From contig JAEOTP010000028.1 of NCBI GenBank assembly GCA_016839765.1, positions 1 to 37,298 on the forward strand: a stretch of 37,298 bases of DNA, read 5' to 3'. A program made the position numbers and the translations under genes. Shown here piece after piece: positions 6,530 through 32,299 of the stretch. Under the pieces are notes generated by a model. That model was not told where the DNA came from, did no database searches, and worked only from the letters and a program-made list of their open reading frames with translations. Source of the DNA: Promethearchaeota archaeon. GTDB lineage: Archaea; Asgardarchaeota; Lokiarchaeia; Sigyniarchaeales; SOKP01. Each line of letters starts with the position of its first letter. Position 1 is the first letter of the stretch.

Positions 6530-7594
6530 TTAATTATTCATCGAGGGAATTTTCTTTAATTCTATTAACTGTTTTGCGATATCATAAAATGCATTTTCGA
6601 CATTTTGTCCAGTTAAGGCAGAAATTTCAATATATTTAAGATTTAAGGCTTCTGCTAATTTTGTAGCCGTTGTATTTTTCACTTTTCTTTTAATTACTAA
6701 ATCAAGTTTATTTCCAAAAATAAATCCTACTATAGATATTTTATCACTAAGATGGCTTTTTATGTCTTTATACCAAGCTGAGATATTCTCAAAACTTTTT
6801 GGGTTAGTTAAATCATAAATCAAAATAATACCATTTATCCCTTGGTAAAAATGCTTTCTCATAGTTTGGAATTTACTCTGACCTGCTATATCCCATATAA
6901 TAAGTTCTACAAAGTCATTATCAACCTGAAAATTTTTATCGCTAATATTGGTTCCCATTGTAGGCACGTACACTCTACTAAAAGCGTTATCGGTAAATCT
7001 TAATATTGTTGATGTTTTTCCTACACCTGGATCTCCTACAACAGCTAATTTAAATTTATAGCTAGCTTCTATTCTTTCTTTTTCGATTGATTCTGGAAAT
7101 TCTTCTCCTGTAGTTAGGGATAGTTCTTTTTTTCTTAATTCTTCAATTAAATCAAGAACATTATTTCTTAATTGATTAATTTCTAAAAATATATCTTTAT
7201 CAATAGCGTCAGAGTTTTCTAATTCAATTATTTTTTTAGAAGTATTAGAAAATAAAGTTTCAAGATAGCTAATGTATTTATAAAAAATTACATCCTCAGC
7301 TTGTCTAAATAGAAAAGTAATTGCCGATCTAGCAGATTTTCCTCTTCTTTTATCGTCTTTTCTTTCTATATATTTTACAATTCCTTTCAGTTTAATAGAT
7401 GGAAATGGAAAAATGATTAAAGAATCAGGTGTGTATCCATAGCTACCAGAAAGTAGCGTAACAGCTTTAATACTTACTAACATATTTACATTTTCAGGAA
7501 GATCAGAAGGATAGCAATAAACTGGATTAGGACCAAGTTCATCATGTAGATCCGTATAAATTATTGCATGAATTAACTCTTTACGTGACATCAC
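6530..7594 (-). CDS. uDENN/longin domain fused to a Rab-like small GTPase
   Basis: N-terminal IIYTDLHDELGPNPVYCYP; GTPase motifs GDPGVGKT, YVPTMG, WDIAGQ, GNKLD, EISAL. Confidence 0.9.
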   Translation of the reverse strand: MMSRKELIHAIIYTDLHDELGPNPVYCYPSDLPENVNMLVSIKAVTLLSGSYGYTPDSLIIFPFPSIKLKGIVKYIERKDDKRRGKSARSAITFLFRQAEDVIFYKYISYLETLFSNTSKKIIELENSDAIDKDIFLEINQLRNNVLDLIEELRKKELSLTTGEEFPESIEKERIEASYKFKLAVVGDPGVGKTSTILRFTDNAFSRVYVPTMGTNISDKNFQVDNDFVELIIWDIAGQSKFQTMRKHFYQGINGIILIYDLTNPKSFENISAWYKDIKSHLSDKISIVGFIFGNKLDLVIKRKVKNTTATKLAEALNLKYIEISALTGQNVENAFYDIAKQLIELKKIPSMNN

Positions 7595-10834: not shown

Positions 10835-11869
10835 TTATTTAAATGTATTATAAAGTTTATTCGCTAAATCATTAAAAGCAGAATCAACGTTTTCACCCGT
10901 TAATGCGCTCGTTTCTATATAGCTGAGATCCTGAGTATTTGCTAATTCAATTGCTTTTTCGGCACTTATTTGTAATTCTTCAGTTAAATCCTTCTTATTT
11001 CCTACAATAAATCCAACTAAATCTGGACGATTTTTTAATTGATTCTTTACATCCAAATACCAATTAGATAAATTTTTAAAAGATTTTTCATTAGTTAAGT
11101 CAAAAACTAAAAGGATGGCATCAGATCCAAGATAAAACTGTTGCCTCATCGTTTCAAATTTAATTTGTCCCGCAATATCCCATAAAACTAATTGAACTGT
11201 TGACCCCTCGACCTTAAAAATCTTATCTGATACGTGGACGCCAAGAGTTGGAATGTAACTTCTTCTAAATGCATTATTAGTATATCTTAAAATTAGAGAG
11301 GTCTTTCCAACTCCAGGATCTCCTACAATAGCTATTTTAAATTTATAATCAACGAGACCAGCCTCTTTTACTTTTTGCTCAGGAAATTCTTTCGCCTGGA
11401 CTTTTTCTTTATTCTTTAATTCTTCTAATAGATTTGATAAATTTAATTCAAATTCTTCTAATGACTCGGAAAAAGTTTCTTTAGGAGCTTTTTTTTTTTC
11501 TAGGTTGATTATTTTTTGCGTAATTTCACCAAATGGAGGAGTAAGCTGATTCATATATTTATAGAAAATAACATCATCTATTTCCCGAAATAATAAGGCT
11601 ATGGCAGATTGACCTATGCCACCTCGTCTATTTGGATCATCCCACTTAATATATTTAATCAATCCTTTCAAGTTTAATGTTGGAAATGGGAGAACTACCA
11701 ATGATTGGGGTACAAGACCCTGCTCACCTGAAAGAACCGCGATGACTTTGATTACAATATGCATTACGTCATTTGGTGAATAATTTGTAGGAAGCCATAC
11801 TAGAGGATTTGGGCCGAGTTCATCATCAAGTTGCGCGTACAAAAGTACTGTAATAACTTCTTCTGTCAT
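10835..11869 (-). CDS. uDENN/longin domain fused to a Rab-like small GTPase (paralogue of 6530-7594)
   Basis: LLYAQLDDELGPNPLVWLP; GDPGVGKT, YIPTLG, WDIAGQ, GNKKD, ETSAL. Confidence 0.9.
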   Translation of the reverse strand: MTEEVITVLLYAQLDDELGPNPLVWLPTNYSPNDVMHIVIKVIAVLSGEQGLVPQSLVVLPFPTLNLKGLIKYIKWDDPNRRGGIGQSAIALLFREIDDVIFYKYMNQLTPPFGEITQKIINLEKKKAPKETFSESLEEFELNLSNLLEELKNKEKVQAKEFPEQKVKEAGLVDYKFKIAIVGDPGVGKTSLILRYTNNAFRRSYIPTLGVHVSDKIFKVEGSTVQLVLWDIAGQIKFETMRQQFYLGSDAILLVFDLTNEKSFKNLSNWYLDVKNQLKNRPDLVGFIVGNKKDLTEELQISAEKAIELANTQDLSYIETSALTGENVDSAFNDLANKLYNTFK

Positions 11870-19106: not shown

Positions 19107-20009
19107 ATGTTAGATTACAAACAAGAACAAAAGATTATAGAAATTGATAAGGTAAAAATTGGCGGCCAACCAGGAGAAAATTCAACAGTTATGATTGGTA
19201 CGGTTTTTTATGCTAAGCATTCTGCTTTATTAGATGAAAAGACTGGAAAAATAGACAAGGACCTTGTTGAGAAAGAATTGAATGAGTTTTCTGAAATAAT
19301 TGAAGATACTGGAATGCAAGGAATTATTGACGTTGTTGGAGCTTATTCAGAGGCTCTTATTAAAGAATGTGAGTTTGTTTCAGAAATTGTTGAATATCCT
19401 TTTCTGGTTGATGGGTTAAACGATGGTTCACGCATTCCAGCCATGGAAGGCTTGAAAGAGATTGGATTATTAGATAGAGCAATTTTAAACAGCATTGATG
19501 AAAATACTACTGAAGAAAGTTTAAATAAATTAAAAGAGATTGGAGTCAAAAATGCCGTGCTCTTAACTTTTGGCTCAAAATATATCTTTCCAAAACAGAA
19601 AATTGAATTTTTAAGGAATAAACTTATTCCTAAAGCTGAAAAAGCAGAGATAAAAAATTTCTTAGTGGATACTGCCGTTTTAGATTTACCTTCTATTGGG
19701 ATTAACGTTGAAACTACGCGACTAGTAAAAAGTGAACTTGGGTTACCAACTGGTTTTGCTCCTGCAAATGCAATTTATGGATGGAAATATGGTAAAAAGT
19801 TTGGAGAAACATCGAGATGTGGAGCAATTGCATCTATAATGTCTTATTGTGTAAATGGTGGAAGTGATTTTGTTTTGTTTGGTCCTATTAAATTTGCCAA
19901 ATGTATTGTGCCAGCGATTTCATTAATTTCAGGAATAAATTCCTATTATAGAAAAAGAATTTTAAGGAAGTCTATATCCGAGAAGACACCTTTAAAAAAG
20001 ATTTTTTAG
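19107..20009 (+). CDS. mtrH: Tetrahydromethanopterin S-methyltransferase subunit H family methyltransferase
   Basis: KIGGQPGE..TVMIGTVFY..H, RAILNSI, LVDTAV, LPTGFAPAN and DFVLFGPI motifs. Confidence 0.9.
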   Translation: MLDYKQEQKIIEIDKVKIGGQPGENSTVMIGTVFYAKHSALLDEKTGKIDKDLVEKELNEFSEIIEDTGMQGIIDVVGAYSEALIKECEFVSEIVEYPFLVDGLNDGSRIPAMEGLKEIGLLDRAILNSIDENTTEESLNKLKEIGVKNAVLLTFGSKYIFPKQKIEFLRNKLIPKAEKAEIKNFLVDTAVLDLPSIGINVETTRLVKSELGLPTGFAPANAIYGWKYGKKFGETSRCGAIASIMSYCVNGGSDFVLFGPIKFAKCIVPAISLISGINSYYRKRILRKSISEKTPLKKIF

Positions 20010-21505
20010 GCAATATATCTAATTAATAAATCTTTTGTGCGATTTAAGAAATTTGGTAAATTATTATTTATTTTATCTTTTTTAATTTCATCATCTAAAA
20101 GAAATAAGAGATACATTTCATACCTATAGACATTTATTTTTTTAAAGAGAATGGTGGAGTCAGCAACTTTAAATATAGCCTCACCTTCTTTTATGGCTTT
20201 ATATTTAGAAAAGATTTTGAATAAGATGGCAAACTGAGGTGCTGTTATTTCAAATACGTTTAATAATTCCTCTGTTTTAGGTATATTTGTTAAAGATACA
20301 GCTTCAGGTGTATAATAATCTGCCAGCACTAAACCATCACTGTTTAACATTAAAGTTAAATAAGTACCAGTTTCTCTTGAAAAATTCTCTAAATTATGAC
20401 CTATTAATTCCTTATTAGGACTTAGTTTTGAGATTCCAGAGGAGAAAGCTCTTAAAATTGAAAAGAGACGAAATATACTAGTTATATAAATTTCTGGTTT
20501 ATTATTCGAATCTATAATAATTAATTTTTCCTTAATTATTTTTAAATTATCATTTAGTTCTTTAGATTCAATAATATCAGGGTCTCCCTTCGATAAAATA
20601 TATATAATTGGAGTATCTTGCTTAAAACTTTTTAATACTTTAGTTATATTTTGAAGATATTCAAAGCTCTCTTCAAATCTATTTCTATTTCTAATATCAA
20701 TAAAATAAAATATTAAATCTGCTTCATACAAATAAATTTGAGCTCTTTTAAGATATTTTTCTCTGAGACTTAACTGACCTCCTAAATCCCATAAAAAAAT
20801 TGTTGTGCCAAGTGTTTCAATAGAACTCACTTGGGCTCCAAATGTTGGTTTCAATCCCATTAATTTAGAAAATTTTCTATCTACTGATAATAAATATGAG
20901 GTTTTACCCGAATCATCTAAACCTGCAAATATAATTTTCATTTTTCTCTGGGTTGTAATAGGCGTTGTAGGAGTTTCCTCAATCTTAAGAACTTTTTCTA
21001 AGAAATCTTTTAAGTGGTGCTCTATTTCATCTTGTGATTTAAAATTATCTATAATTTCTTTATCAAAAACTTGAAATAAATCCAAAATAATGTTTTTTAA
21101 CCTATTAATGTTATTATACAAAAAGCTCCTCTTATTCTCATCCACAAATAGAGAAAAAGATGTCGCTAAAGGCTCTTGGCTAAATTTTACATCTATAAAA
21201 TGAAAAAATGTCAGTGAAGTTAAATTGAAATCTGGAAATGGGATTATACCAAAATACTGAAATTTTTCAACATCCACTCTATTAAGTATAGTACTATCAC
21301 CGATTAATAAACTCAAATTTTTTATCGAAATTTGAGTATAATCTCTTAAATTTAAATCGAGAATTTCCTCATGCATAGTATCTTTTGTTTCAGATTTGTT
21401 TTGCTCACTAGGTTTTGGGAACATGTATATCGGCTCAGGACCTAATTTATCATATGCGCTGAATAGAATTCCTCTAACAATTGATGATTTAAGTATTTCT
21501 TCCAT
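20006..21505 (-). CDS. uDENN/longin, Arf/Rag-like small GTPase and roadblock-like fusion
   Basis: ILFSAYDKLGPEPIYMFP; GLDDSGKT, KPT, WDLGGQ, SKGD, TSI; C-terminal LMLNSDGLVLADY. Confidence 0.85.
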   Translation of the reverse strand: MEEILKSSIVRGILFSAYDKLGPEPIYMFPKPSEQNKSETKDTMHEEILDLNLRDYTQISIKNLSLLIGDSTILNRVDVEKFQYFGIIPFPDFNLTSLTFFHFIDVKFSQEPLATSFSLFVDENKRSFLYNNINRLKNIILDLFQVFDKEIIDNFKSQDEIEHHLKDFLEKVLKIEETPTTPITTQRKMKIIFAGLDDSGKTSYLLSVDRKFSKLMGLKPTFGAQVSSIETLGTTIFLWDLGGQLSLREKYLKRAQIYLYEADLIFYFIDIRNRNRFEESFEYLQNITKVLKSFKQDTPIIYILSKGDPDIIESKELNDNLKIIKEKLIIIDSNNKPEIYITSIFRLFSILRAFSSGISKLSPNKELIGHNLENFSRETGTYLTLMLNSDGLVLADYYTPEAVSLTNIPKTEELLNVFEITAPQFAILFKIFSKYKAIKEGEAIFKVADSTILFKKINVYRYEMYLLFLLDDEIKKDKINNNLPNFLNRTKDLLIRYIA

Positions 21506-21583
21506 TACCTAAGACTTTTGATTTAATTTGAATTAAAACACTTATATTATTTTTTAGGATAATTAATTATTTATATATTAGAT

Positions 21584-22546
21584 TTGTATATGCTAGAAAG
21601 AATTGCAGATAGTATTCGAAATAATGAAAATATACTTGAAAAAAAAGAAATTAATCCAATAGTCAAATTTATTGATAAAAATTCCTTTAAAAGTGAGCGT
21701 ATCTTTTCTGACATTGGAGAGGATTCAGCTGCAATAAAAAACAATGCAAGTTATATTTTAGTAACAACCGACCGAATTAAAACAGAATTCGTAGAAAACT
21801 TTCCGTTTGGAGCTGGTTTCAGCTCGATTTTGGTTGGTGTTGATGATATCTATTGTTGTGGAGGAAAACCCATTGCTGTGAGTATAATTCTTTCATATAA
21901 GGATTCTGATGTAGGAAAGAAAATTATTGAGGGAATATGTGAAGGTTCGCAAAAATTCCAATTACCAATAATAAGAGGCCATACTAAACCAGGTAGTAAT
22001 CACTATGAACTTAGTTCTACTCTTATTGGTGAAATTAAAAAAGAAAACTATATCTCTGCACTAAACGCTAAAGAGAACGATGATATAATTTTAGCTGTAG
22101 ATTTTGATGGAAAAGTAGGAAGAGCTAGTGAATATTACTGGGATACAGTTACATTTAAAAGTACTACTACCTTATTACAAATAAGAGAGTCAATGAATCT
22201 TATTGCTGAAAAACATTTGGCTAATTCATCAAAAGATATTTCTAATGGCGGAATTTTTGGAACTTTATTACAATTAATAAAATATTCAAATATGGGTGCA
22301 AATGTGAATATCAATAATATTCATATTCCTGAAGCTTTAATTAAACAAAATTACAATTTAAATAAATATATACAAATGTATTTAACAACCTCCTATATTT
22401 TGACCGCATCAAAATACAATTCAACGAAAATTTTAAATATTTTTTCCAAATTTGGGTTATATTCAAATATTATTGGGAAAATCATAAAAGGAAACCAATT
22501 AAAAATTAATAATGGTAAAGAATCATTACAAGTTATAAGCTATTGA
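21584..22546 (+). CDS. AIR synthase-related (PurM-like) ATP-binding protein
   Basis: IGEDSAAI, TTD, DDIYCCGGKP, IIRGHT and SKDISNGGIFGT motifs. Confidence 0.85.
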   Translation: MYMLERIADSIRNNENILEKKEINPIVKFIDKNSFKSERIFSDIGEDSAAIKNNASYILVTTDRIKTEFVENFPFGAGFSSILVGVDDIYCCGGKPIAVSIILSYKDSDVGKKIIEGICEGSQKFQLPIIRGHTKPGSNHYELSSTLIGEIKKENYISALNAKENDDIILAVDFDGKVGRASEYYWDTVTFKSTTTLLQIRESMNLIAEKHLANSSKDISNGGIFGTLLQLIKYSNMGANVNINNIHIPEALIKQNYNLNKYIQMYLTTSYILTASKYNSTKILNIFSKFGLYSNIIGKIIKGNQLKINNGKESLQVISY

Positions 22547-22597
22547 AATTTGCTAAATTAGATGGGTTTGTGAATAAGGGAGTGAGGATGAGATATT

Positions 22598-23155
22598 ATG
22601 AATTTTAACTATAGAGAAAATATTAAGGGTATTGTTTCAATAATAGGTGCTAGCGAGATTGATATTAAAACAGAAAAACTAACTTTTGAATTGGGAAAAT
22701 TATTAGCACAAAATAAATATGCCGTAGCTTGTGGAGGCTTATCTGGAGTAATGGAGGCAATATGTAAAGGTGTAAAAGAGGAAAATGGATTAACAATAGG
22801 AATTATTCCCTTTATTGAGAAATCTGCTGCAAATAAATATGTTGATATTGTTATTCCTGTCCCTTTTTCTCAAGCTAGAAATATTGTAGTGGTTTTGACA
22901 GGGGATATTTGTATTGCTATTGGCGGAAAAGCAGGCACTTTATCTGAGATTTGCTTTGCATGGATATACCAAAAACCAATAATTGCTTTATCTAATATAT
23001 CAGGCTGGTCATCTAAAATTTCAAATCAAAAAATCGATGATAGAAGACCTGATAAGATACATGGTGTTGAAACTCCTCAAGAGGCAATTAGAAAAATAGA
23101 TGAATTACTTAATTCAAATGCTAAAGTAAGCAGTAGTATTAATGAAAAATTTTAA
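22598..23155 (+). CDS. LOG/Rossmann-fold nucleotide-binding protein (TIGR00725-like)
   Basis: CGGLSGVMEA, TIGIIP, ARN and GGKAGTLSEI motifs. Confidence 0.9.
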   Translation: MNFNYRENIKGIVSIIGASEIDIKTEKLTFELGKLLAQNKYAVACGGLSGVMEAICKGVKEENGLTIGIIPFIEKSAANKYVDIVIPVPFSQARNIVVVLTGDICIAIGGKAGTLSEICFAWIYQKPIIALSNISGWSSKISNQKIDDRRPDKIHGVETPQEAIRKIDELLNSNAKVSSSINEKF

Positions 23156-23205
23156 ATATATTTTGTAACTGAAATAATATTAACTAACAAAATGTTGAGA
23201 ATATC

Positions 23206-23457
23206 ATGGTAAAAATAGCTGGAGGAAATGGAACTTCCTTAGATGATGCTATAATCATTTCCGATTGTTCATATTTTGAAGGTATTGATCAAGAATATAT
23301 TGTATTAAAGAAAAGATTTGGTAATTATAAACTCATAAAACAGAGTTTGATTGAAGAAAGCGGAAAAAGTTATGATCTTTTTGAAATACAATTAGAAGAT
23401 GGGAATAAAGTTGAGGTATATTTTGAAATTACAGATTTCTTCGGAATAGGGTTTTAG
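23206..23457 (+). CDS. Small hypothetical protein
   Basis: 83-aa ORF co-oriented with its upstream neighbours; GGNGTS..AIII and YFEITDFFG look like conserved motifs. Confidence 0.75.
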   Translation: MVKIAGGNGTSLDDAIIISDCSYFEGIDQEYIVLKKRFGNYKLIKQSLIEESGKSYDLFEIQLEDGNKVEVYFEITDFFGIGF

Positions 23458-23654
23458 GATTATGAAATTTCATTTTACTCATGAGTATAATTAAAAATTA
23501 GAAGGAATTTACAAATACGGGAAATATTAATAAATATCAAGATATTAAAAATTTTTTACGAAAGAATTTTATACAATAAGATAATCTATTTTTTTATAAA
23601 AGAATATATTTATATTTTGTTTTAATTATCAAAACCTTAGATAGGTGAATTTAT

Positions 23655-24617
23655 TTGTCAATCCAATATTTAACCAAGAAAAAAGAAGAAAGACCTGCTG
23701 AACCTTCTAAGATTTTGTTCACAGGACTTGACGCAGCGGGTAAGACCACCATCATTTTGGGATTACAGCGCGAATTTTCTAAGATAGCTTTGCTTAAGCC
23801 AACTCGTGGTGCGCAAAGAAGAATATTTGAATTTTTAGGGAGAGATATAGCGGAATGGGATTTGGGAGGTCAAGTTTCTTATCGAATTGCTTATTTAAAA
23901 AACCCGGGAAAATATTTTGATGGCACTGAGATTGCTATATATGTGATAGATATACAAAGTAGGGCTAGAATTCCCGAAGCAATAAGTTATTTTAAAGATG
24001 TTGTTGAGCAGTTTAAGAAACTTGAAATCTCACCTCCTATTTACGTGTTCCTTCACAAGTATGATCCCGCTCTAAGACGTAACGCTTTAAATGAACTAAA
24101 ATCATTAGAGATTGAGATAAAAGAAAGAATTAAAAAGGCTGTTGATTATAGGGAGATCTATTTTTATAATACTTCTATTTATGATTTACCATCAATAATT
24201 AAAGCAATGTCTGAGATTTTGTTGAATTTATATCCAAAATCAGATTTAATAGAGAAAACAATAAATCAATTTGCCGAAAAAGTTAATTCTGAGGGGGTGG
24301 TTATTCTTGATGATAATTCACTTATATTAGGAGCATATTATAAAAGTGATGAAGCACGAAATCTCTTATCAGCATCCACTCCTTATTTCTTGGCGCTGAA
24401 TGACAATCTTCAGTTTACGCAAGTTTTACCTGGAAAAGAATATGATGAAAGTAAAATGGTAGTACAAAGATTTGGTAAAAACTTTATCTTTAAACAATTA
24501 TCGTTAAAGGAAGGAAGCCCTCCTTACTATTTAATTATGCTTAAGCAAGATCCAAATGTACTAAAGGAGGATTTCGACTGTTTTTCTAATTTATTAAGTG
24601 AAATCCTCTATAAATAG
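23655..24617 (+). CDS. Rag/Gtr1-like (Arf-related) small GTPase with C-terminal roadblock-like domain
   Basis: GLDAAGKT, KPT, WDLGGQ, Rag-type HKYD and TSIY; C-terminal VVILDDNSLILGAY; AGGTGA site before a TTG start. Confidence 0.88.
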   Translation: MSIQYLTKKKEERPAEPSKILFTGLDAAGKTTIILGLQREFSKIALLKPTRGAQRRIFEFLGRDIAEWDLGGQVSYRIAYLKNPGKYFDGTEIAIYVIDIQSRARIPEAISYFKDVVEQFKKLEISPPIYVFLHKYDPALRRNALNELKSLEIEIKERIKKAVDYREIYFYNTSIYDLPSIIKAMSEILLNLYPKSDLIEKTINQFAEKVNSEGVVILDDNSLILGAYYKSDEARNLLSASTPYFLALNDNLQFTQVLPGKEYDESKMVVQRFGKNFIFKQLSLKEGSPPYYLIMLKQDPNVLKEDFDCFSNLLSEILYK

Positions 24618-24743
24618 GTTAAAATTAATAACAAAACTTCCCTTTATAAAAAATTTCCTTCTTTTTCTTAAAAAAAAACATTAATAAAATTTGATTTTCA
24701 TTATTATAATACAGAAATTACTTTAAGTTTTAAATTTAAAAAA

Positions 24744-25700
24744 ATGATAATCTGCTCTAATTGTGGTACAACAAATTCTTCAGAAGAACGTATTTGCAGA
24801 ACATGTGGAGCTCTTCTCCCTGTCTCTAATAAATCACCACGTATGAAAATTGGAACTGGCAAAAAAAAAACCAAATCAAAAAAAAAGGCAATTCAAGAAA
24901 CAAAAGTTGAAAAGCCTTCATTATTAGAGCTACAAGAAATACCAAAAGAATTTGATGAACCGTATTTTAAAGAAAATGAATCATCTGAATATAAAGAGAT
25001 TACTCAAGAATCAGTTGAGAATGAAAATATAATTGATGAGGAAGAAAAGGAAATTTTAAAAGAAATAACTCCTAAACCATTTAGAGGTTCAATTATTTCT
25101 TCTAAAGTAATATTCGGAACCCCTCCTGCTAAAGTGACTAAAAAAGTCTCTAAACAAACTACAGAAGATCAAGAATCTACTTTATTAAAGCAAAAACAGT
25201 TAGAGGAGGATATGACAAAAGTTCTTAAATTTCTTTCAAAAAAAATAACAGTTGAAAAATTACCAACTGAAAAAACTAAGGAAAAAAAGAAAGAAAAAGA
25301 GAAGGTTATTTCTCCATCAAGTATGAATGAAATTTTGAAAGATTTATTAAAACTAGACCTCCATATCGAAGCTTCAGCAATTGTCAAAAAGGATGGTACT
25401 ATTCTCGCCTCAGCTATATCTTCTCGCATATCTGATTCTTTATTTGGTACAATTGGTCAAAGTTTGTCTTTAATCGGAATGGATGTAATTGAAAGTTTAA
25501 GTGCTGGAAAACTACTAAATATCTCATTACGTGGTACTAATGGAGTTCTGGATCTAGCACCCATTGACATTAAAACAACTCAAGGGAGTGATATGATTCT
25601 AATTATTCTTTCACATCCGCGAGTTAAGAGTGGAATAATTCATTTTGCAGCAAATATAGTTAAAAAACAAGTTAAGGAATATTTAGGTTTTTCAAAATAA
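24744..25700 (+). CDS. Zinc ribbon, charged linker and roadblock/LC7 domain protein
   Basis: CSNC..CRTC; low-complexity K/E linker; IEASAIVKKDGTILASA and LRGTNG roadblock motifs. Confidence 0.85.
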   Translation: MIICSNCGTTNSSEERICRTCGALLPVSNKSPRMKIGTGKKKTKSKKKAIQETKVEKPSLLELQEIPKEFDEPYFKENESSEYKEITQESVENENIIDEEEKEILKEITPKPFRGSIISSKVIFGTPPAKVTKKVSKQTTEDQESTLLKQKQLEEDMTKVLKFLSKKITVEKLPTEKTKEKKKEKEKVISPSSMNEILKDLLKLDLHIEASAIVKKDGTILASAISSRISDSLFGTIGQSLSLIGMDVIESLSAGKLLNISLRGTNGVLDLAPIDIKTTQGSDMILIILSHPRVKSGIIHFAANIVKKQVKEYLGFSK

Positions 25701-25708
25701 ATTAATCC

Positions 25709-26506
25709 CTAAAAAATCTGTTTTTGAAACGATAGTTTACTAATTTTAAGAGTTCTAAAATATGTTAAATTTTTTCTTAAATCTTGTAGAAAAGAATTAA
25801 ATCTATAAATAGAAACTAAAGGCACAAAATTTTCACTAATTTTAATCCAATTTTCTTCGAGTGTAACCATTAGAGGAATAATAATTATTGGCATTCTTAT
25901 TTTCAAATCACTTCTCTGTCCTATTAAGGATTGAATGAGACTTGATAAAATTTCAGGATTTTTTTGAAGAACTAGCGCTCTTTGATATTGTAAATTCGCT
26001 GCTTTATTAATCATACTATAAATATCTCTCTTTTTCCATTGTTTTGCATCGATAAATAAAACATAATTTTGTTCTAATCCTATAACATCAATTTCATATT
26101 TAGTTTGATTAGTCTTTTTCTTAAAGTATGACTTATCTGAAAACCGATAGTTCTTTATTGTTCTATAACTATTCTTCGTGAGGATTTCTTGGATTAAATA
26201 TTCAAAACCATTATAGTCTATTAAATTGGATAAGTTATTAATATCTAACTTTAAAAAATTAATTGCTTCAATAATAAATAGGATTTTATTAATTGCAAAG
26301 TAGTTATTATAGGGACCTTTTATAATTGAAATAAATTCAAAATTATTCACAAACTCTTGTAATTTCAATTCATGAAATTCTTTTAAAAATCTAATATCAT
26401 ACATTTCACACCAGATCTCAATCGCATCCTTAGCTGAATCTATTAAAATATGGTAAATTTCATTAAAAAATTGTTTTATAGACAACTCTGAAAGTTGGTA
26501 GGGCAT
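25709..26506 (-). CDS. PD-(D/E)xK restriction endonuclease-like protein (Mrr/NERD-like)
   Basis: FEYLIQEIL, EIDVIG and FIDAKQW motifs. Confidence 0.8.
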   Translation of the reverse strand: MPYQLSELSIKQFFNEIYHILIDSAKDAIEIWCEMYDIRFLKEFHELKLQEFVNNFEFISIIKGPYNNYFAINKILFIIEAINFLKLDINNLSNLIDYNGFEYLIQEILTKNSYRTIKNYRFSDKSYFKKKTNQTKYEIDVIGLEQNYVLFIDAKQWKKRDIYSMINKAANLQYQRALVLQKNPEILSSLIQSLIGQRSDLKIRMPIIIIPLMVTLEENWIKISENFVPLVSIYRFNSFLQDLRKNLTYFRTLKISKLSFQKQIF

Positions 26507-26652
26507 ATTAATAATATTTTTATAGCTAAAAATAAACCAAGGAGGCTTTAAGAATAATGATTTTAGATTTAAGTAGATATTTTTATATCATAATTTAATT
26601 AAATTATAATGAATTCATAGTGTTAGCATCGTTAATTTAATTTATTAACATT

Positions 26653-28530
26653 TTGAATAATTTGGAATTAAGAATGCCCCAAGAAAATAGATCTTATTTA
26701 AAACAATTAATGCCAAAAGTATTTAGAACTGAGGGTGATGTTGTTGACTTTGAACCTGCTAAAATTGAACAAAGCTTAATAAAAGAAACAGGATTAAAGA
26801 AAGAAATCGCAGGAAGGATAACAGAATTAGTAGTTAGGAGGATTATATCTTCAGGGATTAAATTTCTTTCTGGTCCACATATTAGAGAAATAGTATGTTC
26901 AATTTTATCAGAACAGCATTTTGAAGAAGAACGTAAGCTGTATACCAGAATTGGTATGCCATTAATGGATTATGAAGAATTACTTGAGAAAGGTTTTAGT
27001 AAGGAGAAGCATAAAATATTGAATCCAGAAAAAATACATCATAAAGCAGCAAATCAATTAGCTGAAGAATATGCATTGCTCAGAATTTTGAATGATGAGG
27101 AATCACATGCCCATTTATATGGAGATATTTACATTCACCAATTAAAATATTTTGATTTAAGGCCTTATAGCCAATTATGGGATCCAAGATTAATTCTACA
27201 TTTTGGCCTTCCACCATTGAAGAATTGGAATATTACCAGTAGAACACAGCCTCCAAAAAACCTAACAGACGCTTGTATTCAACTCGCTAATTGGTTGGGA
27301 ATCATTCAATGTGAGTTCTGTGGAAATCAAGGCTATGATTTTTTTACAATTTTTTTAGCTCCATACGCTACTCATTTATCATACCAAGAGATTAAAACCG
27401 AATTAAGAAGATTCATTAACGAGATTAACCATTTTTCATTGATTTCTGGTAAAGATTTTTTAAAATCTTCCATTGCTTGTTTTCCAACAATTATTGAAAA
27501 TTTAATGAATCTTGATTATATTGATTCACAGGGAAACAAAAAGGGAGTTTATGGAGATTTTGAGGAAGAGTGTTTAAAAATCTTTAATGCTGTTATCGAT
27601 ATTTTTATTGGGGGAGATTATAACAAAAATCCGTTTCTTATACCGAAACATTTAGTATATTTTGATCTGAATTACTTATATCAAGTTAAAGATTCTTATT
27701 TAAAGCTTTTTGAGGAAATCAATAAGACATACACCCCCTATCTTATAAATTTATCAAGTAAATGGATTAAAGATACAATTATTAGAAACATCTCAGATTC
27801 ATATCTTAATCATGGAATTCTTCAAAAAGTATCATTAAATCTTCCTAGGTATGCATATTTAAGCAAAGATGAAGATTTTTTCTTAGAAACATTAATACGT
27901 TATATAAATTTATCTATAGAAATTTTGAATAAGAAATATGATATTATTCAAAAACGGCTGACGACAAATTATTTGCCAATTTGTAGTGGAAGTATAAATG
28001 GGAATCCTTTATATGATTTGAATAGACAAGATTTGTGTCTAGGATTTATTGGATTAAATGAAGCTGTTCAATTTTTAACTAATTGTGAACTTCATGAGAA
28101 TGATGACGCTTTTTCCCTTGGTAAAAAAATATTGCTAGAGCTCAATAAAATATGCAATGAGAAATCTAATCAATTTAATAGAAAATACGCTCTAGTTGAA
28201 AACACTTCAAATGGACTAATGTTTAGATTCGCTAGATTAGACTATAAGCATTTCCCTATGAAAATTAATCCCAAAATTGTAAGGCGTTATAAAAATGGTG
28301 AAAAATTATATTATAATAATTCTGCTCACTTCATTAAGAACACTAACTTAAAGTTAAAAGAACAAATAGCTAAACAGGGGAGATATCAATATTTAATTCA
28401 GAATGGAGTTGTTGAACAAATTTCTCTTAGTAAAAACAAGAGCGAATTTCAAGATGCTCAAGCTTTCCAAAATTTTCTAAAATATACAAGTGAAAAAACT
28501 CAAATTGGATGTCTTAAATTTATTCCTTAA
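26653..28530 (+). CDS. nrdD: Anaerobic ribonucleoside-triphosphate reductase paralogue with ATP cone; catalytically degenerate and lacking the glycyl-radical tail
   Basis: ATP cone (KVFRTEGDVVDFEPAKI..IREIV), AHLYGDIYIH, SLNLPR, GFIGLNEA and RFARLD are present; no RxxGY motif. Confidence 0.8.
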   Translation: MNNLELRMPQENRSYLKQLMPKVFRTEGDVVDFEPAKIEQSLIKETGLKKEIAGRITELVVRRIISSGIKFLSGPHIREIVCSILSEQHFEEERKLYTRIGMPLMDYEELLEKGFSKEKHKILNPEKIHHKAANQLAEEYALLRILNDEESHAHLYGDIYIHQLKYFDLRPYSQLWDPRLILHFGLPPLKNWNITSRTQPPKNLTDACIQLANWLGIIQCEFCGNQGYDFFTIFLAPYATHLSYQEIKTELRRFINEINHFSLISGKDFLKSSIACFPTIIENLMNLDYIDSQGNKKGVYGDFEEECLKIFNAVIDIFIGGDYNKNPFLIPKHLVYFDLNYLYQVKDSYLKLFEEINKTYTPYLINLSSKWIKDTIIRNISDSYLNHGILQKVSLNLPRYAYLSKDEDFFLETLIRYINLSIEILNKKYDIIQKRLTTNYLPICSGSINGNPLYDLNRQDLCLGFIGLNEAVQFLTNCELHENDDAFSLGKKILLELNKICNEKSNQFNRKYALVENTSNGLMFRFARLDYKHFPMKINPKIVRRYKNGEKLYYNNSAHFIKNTNLKLKEQIAKQGRYQYLIQNGVVEQISLSKNKSEFQDAQAFQNFLKYTSEKTQIGCLKFIP

Positions 28531-28745
28531 TCCCTTACAGTTTTACTTTTTACTTTTTATATTGGAATTAAAATAAAAAATTAAATAATAGGACTATTTT
28601 TGATATATTAACATATTATATTGTTTTAAATCAAAAACATTTGAATAAAAAAATAAAATATATCGGTGTTTCTTAAGAGAAAATTATTATAAATATTTCA
28701 GGCTCTCTTTTTCACTAATTAAAATCTAACAATGCCCATTAAATT

Positions 28746-30164
28746 ATGAGTGGTATAGAAAAACAGATCATAAAATCAGTAATTTTAAGTTTATTTGATG
28801 AAGATGGACCTACACCTAAAATATACTGGCCCCAAGATATAGAAGAATCTGCTCGCTTATTGATTGCAATGAAAACAATCAGTCTTTTAATGGGGGATGC
28901 GGTATATCAAAATGGAACTGAGATTGATGGAGTTAACTATTTTGGTATATTACCTTTTCCTGATTTAAAAATGAATGGATTAACCTATTTTTTTTTAATA
29001 TCTGATCCAAAAGCACGCGGAAATGCAACAGCAGCAACCATTACAGTTTTAATTGATGAGAATAACAGGGTTTTTTTTTATGAAAATATGAAATATCTTA
29101 GAATGATTATAGATAAAGCAGCTTCAAGAGTTCAAACTTCAAAAAGTTTCGATGAGAATAAACAAATTATGGAAGATTTAAGACAAGAATTATTTGAATT
29201 TACTAATGAATTAAAAGATCCATTATCAATAAAACGACAATTAAAAATACTTTTTGTTGGACTGGATAGAGCTGGTAAAACAAGCTTTTTACATGGTGTT
29301 AAGAAGCGGTATTCTGAAATTATAAAAATTCTCCCTACTAAGGGTGTTGTTAGAACAGAAGAAAAATTATTTGAAGAGCAAAACTCTCAAATATCAATCT
29401 GGGATTTGGGTGGACAGCAAAAATATCGAGAAAAATTTCTTGAACAGGGTAAAATATATCTTTATAATGTAGATCTATTATTTTATTTTATTGATATACA
29501 AGATTCAAAAAGAATTAAAGAAGTTATTGATTTATTTAAAAAAATCTTAAACTCATTAAAGGAATTAGATGAATTTCCACCAATAGTGATATGTGTAAAT
29601 AAATTTGACCCAGATTTGAAAAAATCTAAAGAGATTAGGAAGAATTTAAAAATCCTTGAAGAAGAAATAATAAAGTGTTCAAGCGATTTCTTTTTTAAAA
29701 TATTTCATACTTCTGTCTTTGATCACTGGTCTTTAATTTCAGCTTATTCTTATGGGCTCTCACAACTTAGCCCCAATCGTGAATTATTTGAAAATCAATT
29801 AAAATTCTTGGCTAATAAGACAAAATCAGATGCATTATTATTACTAAATGACAACGGAATTATTTTATCAAACTACTCAAACGAGAAATCAAAAATTTCT
29901 GAAAAGGTTTTTGAAATATCCGCACCTCACTTCCAAACTCTCTATAAAACATTTAAAGAATTTAAATTGCTAAAACAAGACTTTATTGTATCTTCAGGAA
30001 TAACAGATGAAGAGAGAAAGATCATTTTTAAAAAAATTGATATAGATAAACATAATTTATATTTACTTCTTTTTATGGAGAAATTTGAAGGAATCGAAAA
30101 GATAGAAAAGCAATTACCAAAATTTACTAAAAATGTAAAAGAATTAATCCAAACTTATATCTAA
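28746..30164 (+). CDS. uDENN/longin, Arf/Rag-like small GTPase and roadblock-like fusion (paralogue of 20006-21505)
   Basis: VILSLFDEDGPTPKIYWP, DPKARG; GLDRAGKT, LPT, WDLGGQ, NKFD, TSV; LLLNDNGIILSNY. Confidence 0.87.
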   Translation: MSGIEKQIIKSVILSLFDEDGPTPKIYWPQDIEESARLLIAMKTISLLMGDAVYQNGTEIDGVNYFGILPFPDLKMNGLTYFFLISDPKARGNATAATITVLIDENNRVFFYENMKYLRMIIDKAASRVQTSKSFDENKQIMEDLRQELFEFTNELKDPLSIKRQLKILFVGLDRAGKTSFLHGVKKRYSEIIKILPTKGVVRTEEKLFEEQNSQISIWDLGGQQKYREKFLEQGKIYLYNVDLLFYFIDIQDSKRIKEVIDLFKKILNSLKELDEFPPIVICVNKFDPDLKKSKEIRKNLKILEEEIIKCSSDFFFKIFHTSVFDHWSLISAYSYGLSQLSPNRELFENQLKFLANKTKSDALLLLNDNGIILSNYSNEKSKISEKVFEISAPHFQTLYKTFKEFKLLKQDFIVSSGITDEERKIIFKKIDIDKHNLYLLLFMEKFEGIEKIEKQLPKFTKNVKELIQTYI

Positions 30165-30283: not shown

Positions 30284-30925
30284 TTGATATACAAAATCTA
30301 TCTAATCGATGGGGATAATGGGATTTCCATACTAGAAACAACATTTAAGGAATTTCAGAAAGGAAAACTTGGAAACAATGTAATCCCTGGATTTTTCAAA
30401 GAGCTAAATCAAATTATTGATAATATTCAAGAAGCTATGGCTAAAGGGAAGAGAAGTGATGAAATGATAAGAATACTAGAATCTGAAGATTCCACAATAG
30501 TAATTTATTATCATCCTGCTTCTAGAATTCTTTTTTGCTCCATTTCTGATGCTGATGATAACACGGATAAATTAACCGAAGTTATTCATAAGATCGCGAA
30601 TAGATTTTGGAAAAAACATCAATCAGATATTAAAACATTTCGAACAACAACCGAGAAAAGTAGATTTCAAACTATTGGAACGGACATTGAGAATTTAACA
30701 CATGGAGGAAAAATTGCAGAAACTTTCCCAAACTTATTAATTGTTAAAAGTGTTTTAGAAAAAATTCTGTCTATGGGGATGATTAATGAATTTGACTTCA
30801 AAATAGCTGTAAAATGCACTGGAGATAATTCTCCCCTAAAGATTGCTAGATTTTTTAATAAAACAAGAACCGAAATTAATGAAGTCTTGAAAAAATTAGA
30901 AGAATTAGACATCATTAAAATATAA
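30284..30925 (+). CDS. Longin domain with C-terminal winged helix-turn-helix
   Basis: MIYKIYLIDGDNGISIL..VIPGFF is longin-like; SPLKIARFFNKTRTEINEVLKKLEELDII is wHTH-like. Confidence 0.75.
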   Translation: MIYKIYLIDGDNGISILETTFKEFQKGKLGNNVIPGFFKELNQIIDNIQEAMAKGKRSDEMIRILESEDSTIVIYYHPASRILFCSISDADDNTDKLTEVIHKIANRFWKKHQSDIKTFRTTTEKSRFQTIGTDIENLTHGGKIAETFPNLLIVKSVLEKILSMGMINEFDFKIAVKCTGDNSPLKIARFFNKTRTEINEVLKKLEELDIIKI

Positions 30926-31798: not shown

Positions 31799-32299
31799 GT
31801 GTTAAGCGTGGAATACAATTATTATATTTATGATAAACCTGAATGTAAATTGACCATAAACAAGATGCCCATTTGGTTTAGAGAAATTAAGTTTGAAGGA
31901 GATTACAATGAAGGAATTATCGTACTTCATTCTCAAAATGACTATGATGAAATTTGGGGTGCCGACGCCAAAATGGAGATTTTTTGGGAAAAAAAAGATC
32001 GCGCAAGTTTGTTTTATGCAAAAGAAATTCAAAAATCTATTGATATATATAATACTATTGGATTAGTTATTATTTCAAAAGAGAATACGTACGTAATGAG
32101 TCATAATTTTACTTTTTGGTATGGACGACGCTCAAAAATGATTAGAAAAAGATATTATAATGAAAAAAGTATCCATGGTATTCTTTATTGTGAAAATACT
32201 GAACGGTTGATTAATATACATACTACTATTGTTGACAAATTATATGAAAACTTTAAGCCATTCATTCTTAAATGTTATAATAATATTTTATGCCATTAA
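31799..32299 (+). CDS. Hypothetical protein
   Basis: 166-aa ORF with GTG start filling the gap; no recognised motif. Confidence 0.65.
   Translation: MLSVEYNYYIYDKPECKLTINKMPIWFREIKFEGDYNEGIIVLHSQNDYDEIWGADAKMEIFWEKKDRASLFYAKEIQKSIDIYNTIGLVIISKENTYVMSHNFTFWYGRRSKMIRKRYYNEKSIHGILYCENTERLINIHTTIVDKLYENFKPFILKCYNNILCH

Follow-up and report, generated by a model that had tools for sequence, protein, structure and literature searches.

Amino-acid signalling to TORC1 in eukaryotes relies on Rag GTPase heterodimers and on longin-containing GTPase-activating protein (GAP) complexes, each of them a pair of one catalytic and one non-catalytic partner. Here we describe two linked genes, A and B, from a Loki-type Asgard archaeon, each coding for a longin domain, a Rag-like GTP-binding (G) domain and a roadblock domain; the longin of A bears an arginine (R91) at a loop position where that of B has none. 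Human folliculin (FLCN) switches such GTPases off with a domain of the kind that opens both proteins. Both genes lie on the 37,298-nucleotide contig JAEOTP010000028.1, referred to below as the window, which is AT-rich (about 28% G+C) and belongs to a genome of 3.3 Mb that is 96% complete. Database relatives are labelled Promethearchaeota or Lokiarchaeota.

Longin-GTPase (Arf-like) fusions were reported in Lokiarchaeum by Klinger et al. 2016 (as cited in PMC4917890), and longin-GTPase-roadblock Rag-like GTPases in 'Ca. Prometheoarchaeum syntrophicum' MK-D1 by Tran et al. 2024 (PMC10933270). In the portions of these sources that were available, the fusions share the three-domain layout and the archaeal lineage of A and B, with a G domain placed between Rag and Arf in similarity; the same portions contained no statement that the fused longin belongs to the FLCN/NPRL2/SMCR8 type and has a conserved arginine, and no description of a linked pair of arginine-bearing and arginine-less paralogues. 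NPRL2- and FLCN-like longins are known from Asgard genomes (preprint 10.1101/2020.10.19.343400), and a GP motif combined with an arginine finger is the hallmark shared by the three longin GAPs of eukaryotes and one class of Asgard longins (Traffic 2025, PMC12290439). The latter paper treats 14 Asgard longins and leaves open which GTPases they serve. These longins carry both motifs and are the kind of domain found in A, but here one chain holds the longin together with a Rag-like GTPase or, among relatives, a Rab-like one.

Among the eukaryotic complexes, FLCN-FNIP2, NPRL2-NPRL3 (GATOR1) and SMCR8-C9orf72 have the longin fold closest to that of A (Z 12-14), with the GP motif before strand 2, a conserved arginine confined to one of the two partners, and a client GTPase of the Rag/Arf type, which is the type of G domain that A and B carry. 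Unlike these complexes, A and B put the GAP-class module and the GTPase on one chain and have neither a DENN nor an NPRL2 C-terminal domain, and the Pfam Folliculin match of A is sub-threshold. The GP motif is present in both A and B, as in SMCR8-C9orf72 and unlike FNIP2 and NPRL3. RagA/B-RagC/D and Gtr1-Gtr2 align with A over the whole length of G domain and roadblock (Z 20-22) and share with it the Rag-type G5 motif TS(I/V)F and the lack of a lipidation cysteine; unlike them, A and B have an extra N-terminal longin and the Arf-like P-loop GLDxxGKT, and any A-B heterodimer is putative. The closest solved relatives are, for the G domain plus roadblock, LokiRagO (8yl2) and LokiRagM (8zla, 9m28) and, for the longin, that of a Roadblock-Longin protein (8yqg). 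Longin, GTPase and roadblock are fused in none of these structures, the longin of 8yqg is without the arginine, and our literature search found no paper for PDB entries 8yl2, 8zla, 9m28 and 8yqg.

The original prediction had called the pair its best candidate for an undescribed system. The separate pieces, namely longin-GTPase fusions, the three-domain layout and Asgard longins with the GP and arginine motifs, are already known and published, which speaks against this part of the claim; what was not found in the available parts of the cited papers is a GAP-type longin as the one fused to Rag-like or Rab-like GTPases, or the linked pair itself. New in this work are a tree that fits a single loss of the arginine, a conserved gene block with a LokiRagO orthologue, a solo arginine-less longin beside A-type genes of family f29, and one genome from which B has been lost cleanly. 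The features of genes A and B in the window are as follows.

28746..30164, + strand: gene A, arginine-bearing, longin, Rag-like G domain and roadblock, 472 residues (stop-free open reading frame; Pfam; full-length model)
28746..29210, + strand: predicted N-terminal longin of A, residues 1-155, FLCN/NPRL2/SMCR8 class (AlphaFold2 model; VIA-align; sub-threshold Pfam Folliculin, residues 79-140)
28806..28811, + strand: GP motif of A, G21-P22, in the loop before strand 2 (invariant in orthologue clusters)
29016..29018, + strand: R91 codon of A, putative arginine finger, loop between strands 4 and 5 (R91-G92 conservation; AlphaFold2 model)
29241..29762, + strand: G domain of A, residues 166-339, with GLDRAGKT, T198, WDLGGQ, NKFD and TSVFD (motif conservation; fold matches to Rag and Arf/Arl)
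29778..30158, + strand: C-terminal roadblock of A, residues 345-471 (secondary structure a-b-b-a-b-b-b-a, where a is helix and b strand; fold matches of G domain plus roadblock)
20006..21505, - strand: gene B, arginine-less, longin, Rag-like G domain and roadblock, 499 residues (stop-free open reading frame; Pfam; similarity to A)
20966..21505, - strand: N-terminal longin of B, residues 1-180, GP kept, insert of about 18 residues after strand 2 (alignments)
21173..21193, - strand: loop DVKFSQE of B, residues 105-111, at the place of DPKARG in A, with S109 opposite R91 (pairwise and multiple alignments)
20009..20941, - strand: G domain and roadblock of B, residues 189-499, with GLDDSGKT, T, WDLGGQ, SKGD and TSIF (motif conservation)

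BLASTP aligned A and B over their full length at 33% identity (E 5e-83), and the two are paralogues. Every motif from which a shared architecture had been proposed was found: D-x2-GP-x-P is DEDGPTP in A and DKLGPEP in B, and YFGI(L/I)PFPD, WDLGGQ, LSPN(R/K)EL and VFEI(S/T)AP(H/Q)F are common to both. The quoted contrast of DPKAR91G in A with DVKFSQE in B was likewise present at the aligned place. Pfam Gtr1_RagA matched A with 86.7 and B with 64.1 bits (cut-off 22), and Pfam Arf also exceeded its cut-off in both (80.3 bits in A).

The AlphaFold2 model of residues 1-155 of A, built from an alignment of 24 sequences, had a mean predicted local distance difference test score (pLDDT) of 88.5 and the longin topology b-b-a-b-b-b-a-a, with strands at 9-18 and 21-28, a helix, strands at 64-71, 76-86 and 94-104, and C-terminal helices. 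G21-P22 is located at the turn before strand 2, between strands 9-18 and 21-28, and R91 in the loop joining strand 4 (76-86) to strand 5 (94-104). The full-length model (pLDDT 76.4, predicted template modelling score 0.69) comprised three domains, with a disordered switch I in the G domain; the linker from the last longin helix to the first strand of the G domain measures about 10 residues, and its proline is conserved in A and B.

Structural comparison of the A longin by VIA-align indicated that the best match is the Lokiarchaeota longin 8yqg (Z 18.5), followed outside the Asgard archaea by FLCN (8dhb_J, Z 13.9 over 133 residues, 2.5 Å), Lst4 (13.4), C9orf72 (12.9), NPRL2 (12.1) and NPRL3 (11.1). 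DENND1A/B reached Z 9.8-10.9 (DENND1A 10.9), and TRAPP, Ykt6, VAMP7, Sec22 and other generic longins at most 9.7. Foldseek agreed with VIA-align on the families, its best non-Asgard matches being NPRL2, Lst4, Npr2, FLCN and C9orf72. Judged from the model, the N-terminal domain is a longin of the FLCN/NPRL2/SMCR8 class. Residues 7 to 155 of the A model aligned with residues 5 to 142 of the NPRL2 chain, which places R91 64 residues before the end of the aligned range; the catalytic arginine of NPRL2, which we take to be R78, would also sit 64 residues before that end. In the ESM Atlas, the N-terminal domain retrieved Promethearchaeota hypothetical proteins and one cluster in which 19% of the members carry Pfam NPR2 (score 0.85), which we treat as a lead only. 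An identity as uDENN, the name used in the original prediction, was considered and proved too loose: the GTPase domain directly follows the longin, no DENN Pfam match was obtained, and because the DENN core is absent this reading was dropped.

Conservation of the arginine was analysed in two orthologue sets, 121 clusters of A that are at least 71% identical and 121 clusters of B that are at least 58% identical. R91-G92 was invariant in all 121 A clusters, while none of the 121 B clusters had an arginine in the R91 column, which is occupied there by S, T, D, E or A. The contrast between the two genes, originally noticed in a single pair of sequences, is thus not a one-off. G21-P22 was invariant in both sets (121/121 each). 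Within-group identity of the longin was 57% for B and 79% for A, and judged from these values the B longin evolves faster than the A longin.

A profile of the N-terminal domain was run against a library of 1.84 billion representatives (E <=0.001), and only 236 clusters were matched. The best 150 of these 236 comprised 55 clusters of longin-Rab, 21 of longin-Rag-roadblock and 8 of longin-Rag architecture, together with 66 longin-only clusters that include many short fragments; within the same 150, the Arg-Gly motif was retained by 49 of the 55 longin-Rab clusters. Proteins of longin-Rag-roadblock architecture fall into two types, one with ARGxAKA(A/S)T and one without the arginine. The main phylogenetic tree was constructed from the G domain and roadblock only, leaving out the longin columns that carry the trait. 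In this tree the arginine-less proteins formed one clade (Shimodaira-Hasegawa-like approximate likelihood ratio test support 97) nested in a grade of arginine-bearing proteins, a topology that fits a single loss of the arginine in the B clade after duplication. The tree of the longin alone is congruent, with a B-type clade at a support of 96.

VIA-align of A residues 165-470 gave whole-length matches to LokiRagO (8yl2, Z 23.9), RagC (21.9) and, at Z of about 20-21, RagA and Gtr1/Gtr2; isolated Arf/Arl G domains reached about 17 against the G domain and roadblock of A. In keeping with Rag/Gtr proteins, A contains G1-G5, a Gtr1_RagA match above the cut-off and a roadblock directly after the G domain. 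Membership of the Arf family was considered and rejected: the Pfam Arf match and GLDxxGKT are present, but a longin of 155 residues stands at the N-terminus and a roadblock follows the G domain. The P-loop GLDxxGKT, the switch I threonine, DxxGQ, (N/S)KxD and TS(I/V)F are kept in the 121 A and 121 B clusters, and the switch II glutamine is kept in the fused G domains of both; with these GTP-binding motifs intact, A and B therefore both look like working GTPases.

Clear orthologues of A were, in our sample of the phylum, confined to the order of the window's own genome, where A was found in 57 of 61 genomes and B, at a strict threshold, in 46 of 61. The cut-off used for B (1e-20) was too strict for family f2, and a profile search added B-type genes there. 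Both genes were found in 44 genomes. In 28 of them the two share a contig, are no more than 20 kb apart and are always divergently oriented; one genome has them 81 kb apart on one contig, and in 15 they are on different contigs of fragmented assemblies, so that linkage within 20 kb holds for 28 of the 29 genomes with both genes on one contig. Family f29 yielded no B-type gene. Its A-type gene instead has a divergently oriented neighbour at a distance of 1.4-1.9 kb, a solo longin of about 170 residues from the same longin family, and in three genomes (G157, L024 4381-4905; G152, L025 4850-5359; G153, L026 4477-4986) this solo longin is without the Arg-Gly motif, the G157 copy having two arginines just before the aligned position. 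In the longin-only tree the f29 solo longins form a separate lineage among the longins of longin-G domain-roadblock (L-G-R) type. This arrangement offers a parallel case for the pairing of an arginine-bearing with an arginine-less longin.

The A-B linkage is part of a larger conserved block. In 15 genomes of family f1, MtrH is followed by B on the opposite strand; next come genes for an AIR-synthase-like protein, a TIGR00725/SLOG protein, a Rag-like GTPase with a roadblock and a zinc-ribbon protein, then NERD (opposite strand), often an NrdD-like gene, and finally A. Family f2 keeps most of this order at protein identities of 33-49%, plus two more small genes after A. All 20 loci that cover the whole B-A span have the Rag-like GTPase-roadblock gene, an orthologue of LokiRagO, between the two genes. 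The following neighbours were identified in the window.

23655..24617, + strand: Rag-like GTPase-roadblock without longin, LokiRagO orthologue (phmmer E 2.5e-91 to PDB 8yl2)
24744..25700, + strand: zinc-ribbon protein with K/E-rich linker and C-terminal domain (zinc-ribbon Pfam matches)
30284..30925, + strand: 213-residue gene directly downstream of A (kept there in f1 and f2)
31799..32299, + strand: 166-residue gene downstream of A (kept there in f1 and f2)

The zinc-ribbon protein, whose linker is about 170 and C-terminal domain about 120 residues long, occurs in synteny in family f1; none was detected in f2. Its C-terminal domain may be roadblock/LC7-like, a lead from the ESM Atlas (score 0.89); Pfam and hhalign against alignments of Rag roadblocks and longins were negative for a roadblock. 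The two small genes downstream of A share 35-59% identity between f1 and f2. The 213-residue gene had no Pfam, NCBIfam or PDB match, and its C-terminal end looks like a winged-helix-like segment; no family was found for the 166-residue gene. B and the AIR-synthase-like gene start divergently 78 bp apart (window 21505-21584), with the TIGR00725 (SLOG) gene next, and the conservation of this arrangement in two families suggests that the two genes share regulation. The AIR-synthase-like gene resembles methanogenesis marker 2 and sll0787 proteins at scores under their cut-offs. The NrdD-like gene (window 26653-28530, + strand) is located between NERD and A in many, not all, syntenic loci and scored 219 bits against an NrdD equivalog cut-off of 326.

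Further members of the longin family were noted in the same genome, which holds five copies, four of them in the window. Besides A and B, these are two longin-Rab fusions with GP and RRG motifs at 6530..7594 and 10835..11869 of the window (both - strand), and a third longin-Rab fusion on contig 17 (L001 1105-2172, - strand) that has EP instead of GP and no Arg-Gly; the Rab branch therefore also has a 'dead' paralogue. Eight proteins of 270-310 residues (P0340, P0351, P0362, P0368, P0369, P0382, P0386 and P0389) have a longin at about residues 110-260 with a conserved ARGG and probably share the Roadblock-Longin layout of PDB 8yqg. Weak longin-type matches were also obtained inside open frames of 1600-2337 residues in genomes of other Asgard families (G086, G025 and G123), indicating that other fusion architectures exist.

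Taken as a whole, the account that we favour, and hold tentatively at a little short of an even chance, is that A and B go back to an ancient duplication within one Lokiarchaeial family of Rag-type GTPases, each fused to a GAP-class longin, of which only A would be catalytic. R91 of A would act as an arginine finger that accelerates GTP hydrolysis on a Rag-like G domain, be it that of A itself, that of its dimer partner or that of a longin-less GTPase of the LokiRagO type. B would be a non-catalytic, degenerate paralogue in the same pathway, as FNIP, NPRL3 and C9orf72 are beside FLCN, NPRL2 and SMCR8, and would most likely work with A through longin-longin contacts, roadblock-roadblock contacts or both. 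The resulting assembly would be asymmetric, with one finger, and the partnership would not be obligatory. Of the fused FLCN-FNIP-Rag-like pair that had been predicted, the layout, the longin class and the arginine contrast are supported, as are the one loss and the linkage; the loss of B in a genome that keeps A speaks against an obligate complex.

Several results weigh against this account. In genome G135, which is 99% complete, A and the block are intact, but the place of B next to MtrH and the AIR-synthase-like gene is empty; no remnant of B was found at the locus (L031 15917-16638) and no B-type gene elsewhere in the genome. This clean loss means that A does not need B and that the A-B partnership is not obligatory. 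The block also includes unrelated genes (MtrH, AIR-synthase-like, TIGR00725/SLOG, NERD and NrdD-like), and with such metabolic genes in it the A-B linkage may be plain collinearity. According to the PDB titles, the solved forms are a homotetramer for LokiRagO, a monomer for LokiRagM and a homodimer for the 8yqg longin, and an Arg or Lys near the loop persists in a small number of deep B-type lineages. At the level of sequence, the Pfam Folliculin (PF11704) match on A residues 79-140 scored 18.9 bits, under the gathering score of 23.3, and HMMER profiles of the N-terminal domain run against PDB sequences did not reach FLCN or NPRL2. They reached the Loki longin 8yqg and, non-significantly, the GP motif of SMCR8, on whose G68-P69 they put the GP of A at E 0.57-0.66. 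Because the profiles missed FLCN and NPRL2, there is no sequence-level mapping of R91 to a known finger such as FLCN R164, NPRL2 R78 or SMCR8 R147.

The loss of B, the metabolic genes in the block and the homo-oligomeric state of solved Loki relatives all suit a reading that we consider somewhat unlikely, namely that A and B are independent switches that form homodimers or homo-oligomers through roadblock and longin, the arginine of A acting in cis or reciprocally in trans, much like in dimerisation-activated GTPases, and the linkage being collinearity inherited from an old duplication; B might then be a slow or differently regulated switch with its longin only a platform. PMC10933270 models homodimers for such architectures, and the longin-Rab fusions that mostly keep the arginine are not known here to need an arginine-less twin, yet the contig 17 copy has neither GP nor Arg-Gly. 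What speaks against independence is that A and B are strictly present one to one and remain divergently linked in two families whose proteins are 33-46% identical, that the f29 A-type gene lies beside its Arg-Gly-less solo longin, and that the three longin GAPs of eukaryotes are all heterodimers of a catalytic and a non-catalytic partner. That R91 is not catalytic, the Arg-Gly instead stabilising the loop or binding another ligand or partner and the longin serving, as most longin and roadblock domains do, as a platform, exchange factor or effector-binding module, appears very unlikely to us. The missing residue-level match by HMMER, the presence of DENN-type longins, which are exchange factors, among the structural matches (DENND1A/B) and the lack of an arginine at the R91 position in the closest structure, 8yqg, would agree with it. 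Against it, Arg-Gly is invariant together with a GP motif that PMC12290439 assigns only to GAP-type longins, the Z values of such longins are higher than those of DENN and other longins, and Pfam Folliculin covers exactly the segment around the arginine. Folliculin was the only recurrent non-GTPase family, found in 25 of 129 longin-family representatives at E <=0.1 (best 1.3e-6) and at 15-19 bits in relatives; in seven of the eight scanned arginine-bearing L-G-R-type sequences the match starts 12-13 residues before the arginine and at profile position 48-49, all scores being under the gathering score. We regard it as highly improbable that the longins of A and B jointly form a folliculin-FNIP-like GAP for a separate LokiRagO-type protein, their fused G domains being regulatory or sensor modules. 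The LokiRagO orthologue, which has no longin of its own, does lie between B and A in every whole-span locus examined, but no catalytic or binding motif is missing from either fused G domain, and the switch II glutamine is among those retained, as would be expected of real substrates.

A bolder proposal, clearly unlikely as it stands, is an asymmetric assembly of A and B, perhaps joined by the LokiRagO-type GTPase and the zinc-ribbon protein, in which the single folliculin-type arginine, R91 of A, would drive GTP hydrolysis in just one G domain of a Rag-like pair; such an assembly would be a self-contained archaeal ancestor of the 'Rag heterodimer plus FLCN-FNIP/GATOR1' arrangement. If this were true, the stand-alone GAP complexes of eukaryotes would have arisen by fission of fusion proteins like A and B. 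As a small, soluble two-protein system, the pair makes the arginine-finger mechanism, its action in cis or in trans and the origin of catalytic/non-catalytic pairing testable in vitro. The A-B pair bears on how the Rag heterodimer and the paired-GAP design originated, and may represent an early archaeal form of the Rag nutrient switch from which that of eukaryotes derives.

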